Origin: Nitrosopumilus sp.
Lineage (GTDB): Archaea > Thermoproteota > Nitrososphaeria > Nitrososphaerales > Nitrosopumilaceae
Assembly: GCA_965214775.1 (NCBI GenBank)
Contig: OZ243974.1
Span: 256,001 to 320,000, forward strand
DNA length: 64,000 nt
Reading direction: 5' to 3'
Below the pieces are notes generated by a model. The model saw only the letters and a list, made by a program, of their open reading frames with translations, ran no database searches and had not been told where the DNA came from. This document shows, in pieces, positions 19,485 to 49,756 of this stretch (its first letter is position 1; the number at the start of each line of letters is the position of its first letter). Both the position numbers and the translations under genes were made by a program.

Positions 19485-20133
19485 ATGAATCTGGTTCCAG
19501 ATATCAGGCAAAGACCGGGCCCGCAGCAGCAGGTATCTATACGAGACGCTGGAGACGAACAGAAATCCTTGCAGGAGAACGAGGATTCGCAGTATCAGGA
19601 GATCTTTTACTGGAAGGGCAGTATTGCAGACACCGCGCCAAGCAATCCTAACGGGTTCAAACCCATTGATCTGCCAAAGGCGCTGGATGAGACCATGAAT
19701 CTGGTAAATGGTGATCCGACTTACAAGGATCCGCATGATGCGCAGATCATGTTTTACAACCAGAAAAACTTTGACTCTCTGGGCATTATCCGGACGCGCG
19801 AGGATCTGTGGAGCCTTTCCACTCCCGTGTTTTGTGACGACGATCGCTGTCGCTTCAAGCACATAACCAACTGTAACACCAGAAGGCTTGTGGACATAAT
19901 CGAGGCGCTCTTTGTGGCAGATGACTGGCATGGAATGGCCGATTTTCGGTTTGCCCGTTGGGTATATGAGTTTGAGATGTCCTATTCTGGTCCTGACAAT
20001 CCGGACGCAATCAGAAAGGCCATATAGGAGTTGGGTATATGAGTTTGAGATGTCCTATTCTGGCCCGGTTGGATGGTCATATCGAAGGGTTTCTGTGCGT
20101 AAAGATACCAATCGGTTGGAGGATTGGAGATGA
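19485..20133 (+). pseudogene. Hypothetical protein interrupted by a 73-bp repeat-filler-repeat insertion
   Basis: Removing 73 bp joins ORF 19485 to ..SYSGPVGWSYRR..EDWR*, whose TGA overlaps the ATG at 20130. Confidence 0.7.
19957..20066. repeat. 37-bp direct repeat (1 mismatch) flanking a 36-bp unique filler
   Basis: GTTGGGTATATGAGTTTGAGATGTCCTATTCTGG(T/C)CC at 19957 and 20030. Confidence 0.9.
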
Positions 20134-28716: not shown

Positions 28717-28785
28717 GTGCGGCGGCGGTGCGGGCGGCGGTGCGGGTGGCGGTGCGGGTGGCGGTGCGGGTGGCGGTGCGGGTGG
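28717..28785. repeat. 12-bp G-rich tandem repeat (GGCGGTGCGGGY), about 5 units
   Basis: Read directly. Confidence 0.9.
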
Positions 28786-32182: not shown

Positions 32183-33531
32183 AGTTTGTTGCATAACTCC
32201 GACTAGAACCAAATCAGTCCGCCCGGATCATGACCGGCGCCCGGTTCCTACATGGCAGCCACCGCCTCTGCAATCCACTTGTTGTACAGCCATATTCTCA
32301 GCTTTACCTCCTGCACTATATTGGACCACTTGAGGGCCATTACGCACTCGCCGAACATGCGCTTTATGGACGATATCACGATCTCTACTATCCACCTGCT
32401 GCCAAAGCCGACCGTGCTCTTCCAGTACCGCAGGTTCTCCTGTCTTTCCTCCTTTGATAGGCTGCCCACCGGCTCCTCGGGGCCGCCCCCGAGCTGCCAT
32501 CGTACAAGCATGCCCCACTTGTCGCCGGTGCCCTTGCCCTTTGCAGTACAGCTTGTCAAAAGCCGTATGAGCGGTTTTATGCCGCGCTTGTGACACTCGG
32601 CTACGTTCTTCCTTGAGCCGTATGCGCCGTCTGCAAGCAGGATCTTTCCCGGCGTATCAGGATTCGCGCCGGTGTCAAGCAAGGTCATCGGTGAGATCCC
32701 GTCTGCAAGCATGTTGGGAATCTTGACTGCATCTGCGCCGTCGGTGAGTTCCTGCTGCTGCTGCTCTTCCTTGATGTTCTTGACTGCATCTGCGCCGTCG
32801 GTGAGTTCCTGCTGCTGCTGCTCTTCCTTGATGTTCTTGACTGCATCTGCGCCGTCGGTGAGTTCCTGCTGCTGCTCTTCCTTGATGTTCTTGGTCGCCT
32901 CCTCAAGCAGTGTCGGCAGTTCCGTGCTGTCGCCGACTGCATCACTTGTGACAGATACTGCCAGCATCTGCTTGGTGTCTGCGTCGACCATCAGGTGTAT
33001 CTTGACGAATCCGCGCCTTACCTTCCATTTCTTGCATATCCACTCGCCCCGATTGTGCTGCTTGAGGCCCGTGGCATCGGCTATCATGACCAGGTTGCGG
33101 GGCTTGTCGCGCACCGTGATTACGTGCTCTGCAATGTCGACGTCAAGCTTTTGTATTCTCCTGAATATCGTGGCATAACACGGCGAGTCCGCACCCTTTA
33201 GCATCTCCTCGAACATGCCTGACAGCTGCCTGTACTGTATCATGAATGCGGTTCTGAGGGCGGCTGCGGCCATTATCATGCCTTCTGCATACAGGAACGG
33301 GGCGCCCTTCTCCTTGTGGCAGTTGGCATCCTTGAGATCCTTCTCCCATTCCGGGTTGTACTTAACGATCAGGCCTGCCCCCCTCTTTACGTACTTTGCA
33401 TTGTCTGTTTGTGTCAATGTATACCAAACGAGGCATCCTCATGATCCATTACTTTTTCGGTAAGGATTAGTTGATCATTTTGGTGATTTTCAGTCAGATT
33501 TCAAATTTTAGGAAGAGTTATGCAACAAACT
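32183..33531 (-). mobile_element. IS5-family (IS903-like) insertion sequence
   Basis: TIR AGTTTGTTGCATAACT/AGTTATGCAACAAACT enclosing a transposase; no TSD seen. Confidence 0.9.
32248..33417 (-). CDS. IS5-family DDE transposase with in-frame tandem repeat insertion
   Basis: IADATGLK..GEW, KIHL, LADGAY, RWIVE..S.IKR; 3 x KNIKEEQQQ(Q)ELTDGADAV. Confidence 0.9.
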   Translation of the reverse strand: MTQTDNAKYVKRGAGLIVKYNPEWEKDLKDANCHKEKGAPFLYAEGMIMAAAALRTAFMIQYRQLSGMFEEMLKGADSPCYATIFRRIQKLDVDIAEHVITVRDKPRNLVMIADATGLKQHNRGEWICKKWKVRRGFVKIHLMVDADTKQMLAVSVTSDAVGDSTELPTLLEEATKNIKEEQQQELTDGADAVKNIKEEQQQQELTDGADAVKNIKEEQQQQELTDGADAVKIPNMLADGISPMTLLDTGANPDTPGKILLADGAYGSRKNVAECHKRGIKPLIRLLTSCTAKGKGTGDKWGMLVRWQLGGGPEEPVGSLSKEERQENLRYWKSTVGFGSRWIVEIVISSIKRMFGECVMALKWSNIVQEVKLRIWLYNKWIAEAVAAM

Positions 33532-40514: not shown

Positions 40515-40586
40515 AATGCAAACCCAACTTTGAGAAAAAAAAGATGGTTTACGGTTGGTCCTATCGACATTAGGCTGCTACTCTCC

Positions 40587-40626
40587 CTGCCTTCTCCTGC
40601 CTTCTCCTGCCTTCTCCTGCCTTCTC
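40587..40626. repeat. 10-bp tandem repeat CTGCCTTCTC x4
   Basis: Read directly; abuts a MITE C copy. Confidence 0.9.
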
Positions 40627-40962
40627 CTGAGAGTTGATTCGAAATTAGCAAACTCTGATTATTTGTGAACGAATTTGTATAGAACGGCTCAAAACATCAA
40701 CAATATACAAACTATCTGTGAAATTACATGAAAAATTCACATTGTTTCTAATTTCGGATCATCTCTCTGCCTCCCTGCCTCCTCCTGCCTGTCTCATCCT
40801 CATCCTCCTCATCCACGTCTCCCTGCCTCCCTGAGAGTTGATTCAAAATCAGCAATCTAATTATGTGTAAACGAATGCAAAAGACAGTTCAAAACATCAA
40901 CAAGACATCTGTCAAATCAGTTGAAAAATTTGCAAGGTTTCTAATTTTGAATCGCTTCTCTG
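40627..40962. mobile_element. Two MITE family C copies (40627-40769, 40831-40962)
   Basis: TIR CTGAGAGTTGATTCGAAATTAG/CTAATTTCGGATCATCTCTCTG. Confidence 0.85.
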
Positions 40963-41084
40963 GGTTGGTGCGCCCTGTAAAGGCAAAGGCCATAGGGATA
41001 GTGCACGCCAAGACAAAGGATGGCCGCGTAGATGCGGACATACTTGAGGATCGCATAGGCCAGGCTCAGGTGCGGGATGACAGA

Positions 41085-41155
<71 letters not shown>

Positions 41156-41312
41156 TGGAACGCAGTATAATGCAGGTGGCAAAGATGAGCCGTTATCTAC
41201 TGTAGACACTACAAAGCAGGGTTCCCAAAGACAAACAGCAACCAAGTAAATGAGGGATCAAGGATGCAAAAGTGAACGATTGTCTATCACGTTTACAATG
41301 TATGTTCAACAC

Positions 41313-44777: not shown

Positions 44778-45385
44778 ATTGTGTGCAACAATTTGTATGT
44801 TGGTTATTTAATATATCTATGGTATCAGTCTTCTGTATGAGTTTACCCCTCAGGCGACGTTTCCAGTCAGGGTCTTGGCGACCATCTCACTCACGTTGCA
44901 ACCCTGGGCGCGCCAGTTCATCGTGCATGTCATCAGTACGGTGAACATCTCCATGCCCTCCATGGTACGGAGTCCCTGGAATATCTTGCGCGCAATTACG
45001 GACGGCCTCAGCATGCGCTCGGCCAGGTTGTTGGTGGGCTCCATGCCCGGATACAGCACGAACGTGTACAGGTATTCTGAAGCGTTCCCAAGCTTTGTAG
45101 CAAATCTCGCGCAACCTGCCTCCCTGAATGCTACGGCCAGTGCGCGTGTCTCGACTACCAGCATGTCGTGCTGCTGCTACCTGGTATCGTCCTTCTCCGG
45201 TGGTGGTGGTTCCAGCCCCTTGGCAAAGAGGAACTTTTTCTTGAGTGTATCATACAGCGCGTGGGCCTGCCGGGAAGTCTTGTCGGCATCCTTGGCCTCC
45301 CGGAGTATGTGTGCCCAGCACCACTGCCTAGTCTTGAATACGACATATACACCGTACCCGTCGACTGTAGCTGGTTTGTCATAAT

Positions 45386-45465
45386 AGACTTTATGCGTAA
45401 TCGACCTGAATGAGATGAATTTGTTCGTAATAATCCTAGATTTGAACCAATTACGCATAAAGTCT
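45386..45465. mobile_element. MITE family B inside the IS66 transposase
   Basis: Removal with one AAT restores the frame NFPYYDKP. Confidence 0.92.
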
Positions 45466-45681
45466 AATACGGAAAGTTCGTGTCAACTACTATCCTGCCC
45501 TTGCTGGGTGCAACCAGCGTGTGGACGCCGGTTATGCTGCCGTCCTTGTCCTTGCCTACTACCACCCATATACGGGCCGTCCTGCCGTTGTATGGCATGG
45601 CAGTCTCGTCAATATGCAGATAATCAGAATCTCGGATGGCCTGCTTTATGCCCTCTACGCTGGGCTTTATTGCCTTGGTGC

Positions 45682-45791
45682 AGGCCCTCAGGCACTGCAG
45701 CACGCCTGCCTCTGAGACCTACGTCCTGCGGGCGTACTTTGACATCCAGCTATTAGGCCCTCAGGCACTGCAGCACGCCTGCCTCTGAGAC
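45682..45791. repeat. Perfect 37-bp direct repeat flanking a 36-bp unique filler
   Basis: AGGCCCTCAGGCACTGCAGCACGCCTGCCTCTGAGAC at 45682 and 45755. Confidence 0.95.
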
Positions 45792-46459
45792 GTCCATGTT
45801 CAGGATTTCTGAGCACATTGTGGCCGTGGCCTGTATGGAGGCAGGTGCCATGTGCATTGAAGTTATCATCCCCGTAATGTTTGGTCCAAACTCGGTTCCC
45901 GGCACGTTCCAGTCCCTGTCATCCTCCATACACACGTGGCCGCAGTCGGCGCATTCGCGTTTGTATGCGGTGTGCTGCTGTGTCGTGACCGGTTTGGGCC
46001 TCTTGGGGATCTCAGTCACGGTCTTTGAGAACATCCTTTTGGGCTTCTTCATGTTGGTGCTGCCGCACTTGTCGCACTTTTTGGGGCAGTGCTTTACAAA
46101 TTCGGTCGGCATCCTCTTGTGTGATATTCCCTTGTGTCCCTGCCTGCGGCCCGGCTTTGCCTTTGCAGATGCCGGTACGTTGCCTGATGCCTTTGCAGCA
46201 GCAGTCTTTTTCTGCCTGGTCGGAATCGAGTTCTGCGAGGATGGGGTGTGCGGGTTTTCGTAATATTTGATGTGCTGTTTGAGCTGCTGGTTTTCTGCTG
46301 TCAGCATCGTCTTTTCTGCCGTGACCTCGGCCAGCTGTTCGGTAAGCCCGACTATTGTCAGATCCTTGTCTGCGATGGTTCTATCCTTCCTGCCTAATTC
46401 GGCTATGGTGCGGGCCAGCTCGTCGCGCAGTATCTTGGTCTCTGAATCAGGCATGAATA

Positions 46460-46602
46460 CAGAGAGTTGATTCGAAATTAGCAAACTCTGATTATTTGTG
46501 AACGAATGTGCATGAAACAACTCAAAATATCAACAAAATACAAATTATCTGTGAAATTACTTGAAAAATTCGTATGGTTTCTAATTTCGGATCATCTCTC
46601 AG
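46460..46602. mobile_element. MITE family C
   Basis: CAGAGAGTTGATTCGAAATTAG...CTAATTTCGGATCATCTCTCAG. Confidence 0.9.
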
Positions 46603-46666
46603 GTAGGACGCCTCCCTTATGAGGAGGTCATGTAACGTGGCGGGGGTTCGAATCCCCCTCTTGACG
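46603..46666 (+). pseudogene. 5'-truncated tRNA gene with long variable arm, anticodon TAT
   Basis: CCTCC-CTTATGA-GGAGG anticodon arm; 14-nt variable region; GGGGG-TTCGAAT-CCCCC T arm; TCTTGAC-G. Confidence 0.75.
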
Positions 46667-46858
46667 CAGACTGCCTTCCAAACAATTGATCCTGACCGAT
46701 TATTTGTACGGAACCTAGAAGATAGGAAGCGAATTGCCATCCTGCAATCAGCGATGACGTTTTTGGCTGCAATCACCCCGGTCATGCCGGCCATCCGGTT
46801 TTCTCCGTCTTTGTTCAGGGCTGAATTGGGGATTGATTCTGTCGGGGCATCAGAAGGG

Positions 46859-46985
46859 AGTTGTCGCCTAATTCCATTTATTTGGCTCAATCTGCCAGTT
46901 TTTCTAAACTTCCGCCCTTGTGCACGCCTGATCCACATGGCATCTCAATGGTTTTCAGGAATTCTGATGAATTAGGCGACAACCT
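46859..46985. mobile_element. MITE family F (reverse orientation)
   Basis: GTTGTCGCCTAATTC...GAATTAGGCGACAAC. Confidence 0.85.
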
Positions 46986-47231
46986 CCTGCGCACGACCAA
47001 GAACTCATACACGAAGGAACCTCCTTCCTCAAGAACAACCATATGTGGAATGTGACAAGGATATCGCAGCCACACTCCGTATACAAGACACTTGAGCAGA
47101 TCGTGCAAGATAATACTATTCTATCCGCTTTATTGGAATTTCAATAACACAATACACATTTCCAGATATTACCATTCTAGTACCTCTGTGTCCTTGAGTC
47201 ATGCGAATAAGCCTTTCATGGTTCTTTTTTC

Positions 47232-49640: not shown

Positions 49641-49756
49641 GGCGGCCCTCGCTGATTTTCTGGACTGCCATTTCACAGCCAGATGCCCATGTTTGCAATC
49701 AATACGACTGAGAGGCGGCCCTCGCTGATTTTCTGGACTGCCATTTCACAGCCAGA
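49641..49756. repeat. 43-bp perfect direct repeat with 30-bp filler (period 73)
   Basis: GGCGGCCCTCGCTGATTTTCTGGACTGCCATTTCACAGCCAGA at 49641 and 49714. Confidence 0.95.

Follow-up and report, generated by a model that had tools for sequence, protein, structure and literature searches.

A 73-bp insertion in an IS66 transposase gene, probably one of about 45 off-target spacer integration scars in an archaeal genome

Off-target integration by Cas1-Cas2, which leaves so-called "neo-CRISPR" loci, was reportedly described by Nivala, Shipman & Church in 2018 (Nat Microbiol 3:310). The same subject is treated in the accessible part of a citing paper (PMC7054753). According to the available portion of a preprint, the off-target events in E. 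coli required up-regulated Cas1-Cas2, and for two other species there was "circumstantial evidence" only (bioRxiv 10.1101/148544); the accessible text of another report states that IHF guides these events in E. coli (PMC9456107). The closest biochemical data come from Pyrococcus furiosus, whose Cas1-Cas2, as far as the available part of that article describes it, attacked non-CRISPR plasmid sites in vitro 30-31 bp apart, in accordance with a repeat of 30 bp, with a strong preference for G at the joined nucleotide and with enrichment of the repeat positions G1, T2 and A6 (PMC6698737).

Here we describe a unit of 73 bp inserted in a transposase gene, found in a 64-kb stretch of DNA (the window), which corresponds to positions C1:256001-320000 of a single-contig archaeal genome of 2,833,656 bp (G000); the unit lies at C1:301682, and positions given without the prefix C1 are those of the window. 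Judged from sequence, this unit probably belongs to a set of about 45 natural off-target spacer integrations in the genome, and the mechanism would be a known one. What is unusual is how many natural events a single genome holds, and a limited literature collection yielded no account of comparable numbers in a natural genome. With neo-CRISPR loci, as characterized in the accessible parts of the sources, the units share a spacer-sized insert, a repeat-length duplication of a non-CRISPR target and targets that resemble the native site. They differ in being natural events, in belonging to an archaeon with a type I-B system, in reaching about 45 in one genome, in lying in many cases within genes and IS elements and in carrying host DNA in at least 13 cases. 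A role of IHF, as in the E. coli events, is not expected here. The resemblance to the P. furiosus data, within the accessible part of that article, extends to the enriched positions, here G1, Y2, A6 and A7, and to the spacing of the attacked sites, here 36±1 for repeats of 36/37 nt, while the former were obtained with purified proteins and a plasmid and the latter are fixed chromosomal scars (PMC6698737).

The 73-bp unit and the interrupted transposase gene

The unit is composed of a 37-nt direct repeat, the two copies of which are 100% identical and spaced 73 nt from start to start, and of 36 nt of filler between them. The perfect 37-bp duplication around a 36-bp filler, with which the preliminary description began, was seen both in the sequence itself and by the repeat finder. 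The features of this locus are as follows.

44835..46462, minus strand (transposase): IS66-family insertion-sequence (IS) copy that carries the unit, from open reading frames (ORFs), paralog alignment and PF03050
45753-46520, 45464-45703, 45177-45458 and 44850-45164, minus strand: transposase fragments, from ORFs
45682..45718, no strand: first copy of the duplicated target, a 37-nt exact run, in which the true duplication is probably 36 bp (45683-45718)
45719..45754, no strand: spacer-sized filler of 36 nt, or 37-38 nt if the ambiguous flanking bases are counted in
45755..45791, no strand: second copy of the duplicated target, from sequence and repeat finder
~45385..45466, no strand: MITE-like repeat of ~80 bp, separate from the spacer-like unit and absent from other IS copies

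At up to 3 mismatches the 37-mer has two matches in the 64-kb window, a number reached in 0/100 shuffles. The filler has a single match at the same threshold, which bears out its described uniqueness within the window, and any match to it was obtained in 0/100 shuffles. The repeat boundaries had been called sharp, which holds for the exact 37-nt run but not for the insert, since the match of the closest donor paralog of the filler continues 1 nt past it on each side. The event may therefore have been a 36-bp duplication (45683-45718 / 45756-45791) with a 37-nt insert (45719-45755), or one of 35 bp with an insert of 38 nt; the period of 73 is unaffected by this ambiguity. Among the records listed from Logan contigs of four runs none bridges the two junctions of the unit, because the contigs break at the repeat.

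The ORF at 45753-46520 has the C-terminus ...NMDVSEAGVLQCLRA, where a stop codon is created at the repeat/filler junction, while the ORF at 45464-45703 reads MLQCLRACTKAIK..., and within it the transposase frame picks up again as ...LQCLRACTKAIK. Both translations quoted in the preliminary description were in this way reproduced from the ORFs of the window. An intact paralog is 476 aa long and matches PF03050 (IS66-family DDE transposase) with E=1.1e-29, and fragments of the window transposase match the same family with E=4e-7 and 3e-8. When other IS66-family copies were aligned, 9/9 lacked exactly these 73 bp, each having one 37-mer and no filler, and none of the intact copies contains the segment, so the unit is an insertion with target duplication, the polarity that had been proposed from the known state of IS66 genes. 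Empty-site paralogs of this unit, as counted, number ten. The proposed knock-out of the transposase by the 73 bp is upheld by the stop codon at the junction, but the ~80-bp MITE-like insertion breaks this copy too: in other IS copies position 45386 is followed directly by 45465, with an overlap of about 5 bases, and over 20 further loci across the genome match 45381-45470. With these two insertions in one IS copy the transposase is disrupted at least twice.

The MITE-like repeat, 250 bp away in the same IS, offers a direct contrast to the unit. Like MITEs and other small transposons, the unit is a short insertion within a direct duplication that disrupts a gene. Unlike them, the units of this genome have fillers which all differ from one another, and the 45 fillers have no terminal inverted repeats in common. 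Target-site duplications of transposons are, in addition, typically far shorter than 36-37 bp.

Other repeats are present in the surroundings of the IS. Beside it there are two short multi-copy repeats, one of ~140 bp with about 30 copies (46460-46603) and one of ~130 bp with about 10 copies (46856-46990). Simple tandem repeats reported by the repeat finder in the window (no strand) are the following.

41078-41167: (CAGG)n
32721-32891: 57-bp unit x3
28721-28785: 12-nt GGC-rich repeat
40586-40635: 10-nt repeat

Resident CRISPR-Cas system and a genome-wide class of units

The genome has two canonical arrays.

C1:2420114-2425007: array A, 67 perfect 37-nt repeats, spacers of 33-39 nt with mode 35
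C1:1977219-1978062: array B, orphan, 12 repeats of 36 nt of which the last is degenerate, spacers of 36-39 nt

A single Cas1 and a single Cas2 match above Pfam cut-offs are present in the genome, and both adjoin array A in an operon with cas8-like, cas7, cas5, cas3, cas6b, cas1, cas2 and cas4 genes (type I-B). No cas genes were found near array B, the repeat of which closely resembles the one in a large array beside a cas1 in the relative G009. A period of 73, a duplication of 36-37 bp and an insert of 36-38 nt are the dimensions of one resident repeat plus one spacer. The likeness to arrays A and B thus comprises the period of 72-74, the spacer-length inserts and the repeat-length direct repeats. 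The differences are as follows: the "repeat" of the unit is IS66 coding sequence present in two copies only, with a single spacer, no leader and no adjoining cas genes, which is not what canonical arrays look like, and in the class of units many inserts are self-derived. The unit probably has no function in immunity, for its repeat differs from the Cas6b substrate.

Outside the CRISPR arrays of this 2.83-Mb genome we found about 45 repeat-filler-repeat units with a period of 70-76. Exact direct repeats of 30-46 nt outside arrays number 3, 13, 15 and 11 at periods 71, 72, 73 and 74, respectively, and neighboring periods that are not multiples of 3 have 0-1 such repeats each. The set of 45 was defined by the period 70-76 after removal of coding tandem repeats and low-complexity loci; left out were six copies of a 75-nt coding repeat found within a multi-copy element, a pair of low-complexity loci close to C1:449000, a collagen-like repeat (C1:2133530) and, as weak, six units whose duplications fell short of 31 nt. 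The excluded 75-nt-period repeat, in which a 34-nt repeat (2 mismatches) is combined with 41 nt of filler, occurs in at least six copies of its element (C1:113943, 228016, 794568, 1521943, 1531675 and 1590841). We read it as a 25-aa coding repeat, while alternatively it may be an old unit spread by transposition.

Two sister units of the class lie in the window itself.

19957..20066, no strand: 37-nt duplication with 1 mismatch, 36-nt filler, period 73
49641..49756, no strand: 43-nt exact run, period 73

The commonest exact-run lengths in the class are 36 nt (15 units) and 37 nt (10 units). Duplications are perfect in 39/45 units, which indicates that the events are recent, and precise loss through recombination between the 36-37-bp repeats would be expected to limit the survival of units. 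For 13/45 units an empty-site paralog exists, and not one of the 45 is common to a paralog. After in silico excision, twenty of them prove to lie in frames of 150 aa or longer. A cluster of five units was found in the glycosylation/AbiE island at C1:1266-1282 kb. IS elements as preferred targets were considered and rejected: repeated DNA makes up 22.7% of the genome, and against this background 6/45 units are in repeats by a strict flank measure, or 13/45 as judged by empty-site paralogs. Clustering of donors or targets at replication landmarks was dropped, as neither an origin nor a terminus could be located from GC skew.

To place these numbers among relatives, the cas1 status was taken from a Pfam scan of 20 of them and units were counted by the same period scan in three genomes. 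The genome described here (cas1 present) has 45 runs in 2.83 Mb, or 15.9 per Mb; G009, with two cas1 genes, has 18 runs in the 720 kb examined (25 per Mb); G002, 99% complete and with no cas1 found, has 2 runs in 1.2 of its 2.2 Mb (1.7 per Mb). The association of units with cas1 across relatives is a hint, drawn from three genomes of which two were covered partly. Canonical repeats of G009 are 36 and 30 nt long. Four of its single units have 33-bp duplications, unlike either, and the termini test described below is weak in this genome (p=0.02-0.09, n=13). The 18 runs of G009 include two mini-arrays with locus-specific repeats and 3-4 spacers each, all different.

C1:238779-239170 of G009: mini-array, 5 repeats (36 nt)
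C1:620131-620390 of G009: mini-array, 4 repeats (37 nt)

One of the two has an overlapping staggered extra unit. Such a state would be expected if a scar can grow, and both are candidates for grown neo-CRISPR arrays. At ~70-75% DNA identity the relatives yielded no orthologous empty sites of single-copy genes.

Target ends and the source of fillers

In 34/45 units the duplication has G as its 5' nucleotide on one strand or on both (expected fraction 0.42, p=5e-6); 30 of the 45 have it at one 5' end and four at both. Among the 90 pooled ends, G1 occurs 38 times, Y2 69, A6 38 and A7 39 times. The termini were tested a priori against the repeat of array A in its transcribed orientation, GTCGTA...TTGAAAC. 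Both termini scored jointly with k=6 gave 5.02 against 3.69 at random sites (p=7e-10). With one end used for orienting and the opposite end scored, both ends are significant, p being about 3e-5 for each, and position-permuted termini matched the true excess in 0/400 cases. The sites also show similarity to the cas-side leader-repeat junction (p=1.4e-5). For the unit at 45682-45791 alone the likeness of the target site to the repeat appears modest: its 3' end ...CTGAGAC agrees with the repeat end ...TTGAAAC at 5/6 of the last positions, and both of its 5' ends are G only under the 36-bp reading.

The plus-strand translation of its filler, YVLRAYFDIQL, is a fragment of an integrase-like gene family. 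The best match in the genome is 36/38 nt at C1:1024992-1025029, followed by 32/33 nt at C1:482713-482745, the others being weaker. The relatives of the filler have 88-97% identity to it (100% for one partial 26-nt match), and all of them are within integrase-like coding sequence, which agrees with the coding-like character already noticed in the filler. They lie at C1:198336 and further, the best one being that at C1:1024992, far from the insertion at C1:301682; an origin of the filler from adjacent DNA, which had been named as a possible refutation, is in this way ruled out. The filler was never seen among the genome matches as an insertion at another site. The matches fall in a stretch, ...ERPYVLRAYFDTQLL..., that is conserved in a protein family with members of ~480 aa; in this genome the family has four close and about seven distant paralogs. 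The filler had been called foreign. This stands insofar as the exact 36-mer was not found in the public collections searched (genome_contigs, viral_contigs and metagenome_contigs), but the family to which it belongs is multi-copy in the same genome. Its donor would be a family member absent from this assembly, either in a related mobile element or as a lost copy, because the exact 36-mer was found nowhere searched and the best genome match is 36/38 nt. A second unit, at C1:2744112, has a filler from another member of the same family.

For this donor family no match to Pfam or PHROGs was obtained even at permissive E-values, and a sequence comparison with PDB gave nothing meaningful (best E=0.11). 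Of 8000 sequences scored against a representative at C1:653110-654561 (minus strand), 2395 are homologues at E<=1e-5. The pattern YVLRAYFDT...MGH...Y of the family resembles what we take to be the catalytic region of a tyrosine recombinase. In agreement with this guess, NCBI gives the name "site-specific integrase" to a few of the homologues from MAGs of Nitrosopumilaceae and Nitrosotalea.

At least 13/45 fillers have near-full-length matches elsewhere in their own genome, in single-copy genes as well as in mobile elements. Canonical spacers have no such self matches (0/77), only 17-nt chance matches. This difference would be expected if ectopic units are not expressed as crRNAs, because self spacers in arrays would be selected against through autoimmunity. 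Donors are distant from their units and on either strand. In the sister unit at 49641-49756 the filler derives from C1:1469985-1470018 (33/34 nt), and the donor match enters the run by 3 nt. The inspection of donor flanks for a PAM, advised in the preliminary description, was carried out at 14 donor sites of the class, where no consistent motif was found in either orientation. Array A (5.1 kb) had no match in the collections of phages and plasmids, so the canonical PAM could not be derived there.

As to the location of donors, two single-copy ones (C1:2405741-2405777 and C1:2445016-2445053) are both less than 15 kb from the CRISPR-cas locus, and 5/10 single-copy donors lie between 2.35 and 2.63 Mb. 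A local hot spot of capture near this locus is suggested by these small, post hoc numbers.

Origin of the units

The 73 bp are likely a scar of off-target (ectopic) spacer integration by Cas1-Cas2, an origin which the preliminary description implied and which the genome-wide evidence supports. According to this reading, the Cas1-Cas2 integrase would have captured a ~36-37-nt fragment of a mobile-element integrase-like gene, and the two 3' ends of the fragment would have been joined to opposite strands of the IS66 transposase gene, ~36-37 bp apart, in place of the leader-repeat junction. Gap filling would then have duplicated the intervening target and produced "pseudo-repeat - spacer - pseudo-repeat", with insertional mutagenesis through the stop codon at the junction as the effect. 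That the enzyme was Cas1-Cas2, and which module acted, we infer; the genome's single type I-B cas1-cas2-cas4 module is the most likely one.

Several observations do not fit this reading well. The modal exact duplication is 36 nt while the repeat beside the only cas1 is 37 nt, the implied spacers of about 36-38 nt are 1-2 nt above the array A mode of 35, and the GC content of fillers is 51% versus 42% in array A spacers. Duplication and filler taken together vary far less in length (SD 1.27) than the exact run does (SD 2.95), with a correlation of 0.07. Five units have runs of 43-46 nt, which is beyond chance extension; those with a known donor have 3-5 nt of spacer/flank homology and an implied duplication of 39-41 bp. 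The missing PAM at the 14 donor sites and the 33-bp duplications of four G009 units likewise fit poorly. In this genome the repeat-like target ends together with the cas1 association outweigh the constant sum.

The off-target integration could instead have been performed by a second, lost adaptation module which served the orphan array B, and to this we assign a small chance. With a modal duplication of 36 nt and implied spacers of 36-38 nt the units come closer to array B than to array A (37; mode 35), array B is without cas genes nearby, a closely similar 36-nt repeat array stands beside its own cas1 in G009, and G at one 5' end only, the state of most units, is as in repeat B. However, the orientation-independent 5'-end test favors repeat A (p=3e-5 versus p=0.004 for B), the flanks show likeness to the cas-side leader of array A (p=0.009) but none to the leader side of B (p=0.72), and the perfect duplications speak of recent events, yet no second cas1 exists in the genome.

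Distinctly less probable is an undescribed CRISPR-independent process that adds a near-constant ~73 nt, made up of a copied fragment and a compensating duplication of the target. Such a process would account for the sum being better conserved than its parts, as is seen in units with a 31-32-nt duplication and a 40-41-nt filler and in others with 39-41 nt and 33-35 nt, and it is in accordance with the lack of a PAM, with a filler composition unlike that of canonical spacers and with the 33 + 38 units of G009, which fit neither of its canonical repeat lengths. On the other hand, it names no known enzyme and predicts neither that both target ends should resemble both ends of the resident repeat, nor the near-absence of units in the cas1-less relative, nor that mini-arrays of locus-specific repeats and different spacers should have grown in G009, and the fillers are only marginally hairpin-prone (mean MFE -6.1 versus -5.0 for random 36-mers, p=0.04) with their higher GC. 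Template switching or microhomology-mediated repair, with ~36 nt copied from a distant integrase gene and re-annealing 37 nt back, is highly improbable, for although the donor paralog matches past the filler on each side and five other units have 3-10 nt of junction homology, 1 nt per side is at chance level, 9/14 donor-defined units have 0-1 nt at both junctions, which argues for transesterification instead, the donors are distant and on either strand, and no fixed 36-37-bp setback, copy length of 35-38 nt or repeat-like target ends would be predicted.

Returning to integration by Cas1-Cas2, we lean towards a broader view in which the CRISPR integrase of this archaeal lineage steadily acts as an endogenous mutagen and gives rise to new arrays, with a weak site code that mirrors both repeat ends and with some scars that grow into multi-spacer arrays, as in G009. 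If this is true, the genome is a natural record of the target and prespacer preferences of Cas1-Cas2 free of interference selection, dozens of "spacers" derived from the host and from mobile elements have been written into genes, IS elements and intergenic DNA, and capture of self DNA is common, with no PAM detectable at the 14 donor sites. About 45 scars with empty-site controls, donors and a measurable target signature turn an anecdote into a data set. Broken genes represent a fitness cost of CRISPR adaptation, and the fillers, at least 29% of which are self DNA, show integrase capture unfiltered by interference. The units also bear on the birth of new arrays, and tools that reject two-repeat "arrays" as false positives would overlook them.

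Another IS66 copy carries, at C1:895398-895650 and in addition to the 45, a 73-bp unit three times in tandem with identical filler. The identity of the fillers indicates that the tripling came about by amplification of the inserted unit and not by uptake of new spacers. Its unit junction recurs in the Logan contigs of three public runs, which may include the source of the assembly. Also within this IS66 copy are a second unit, at C1:894783, and, at about C1:895087-895165, an insertion of ~75 bp bearing inverted ends.
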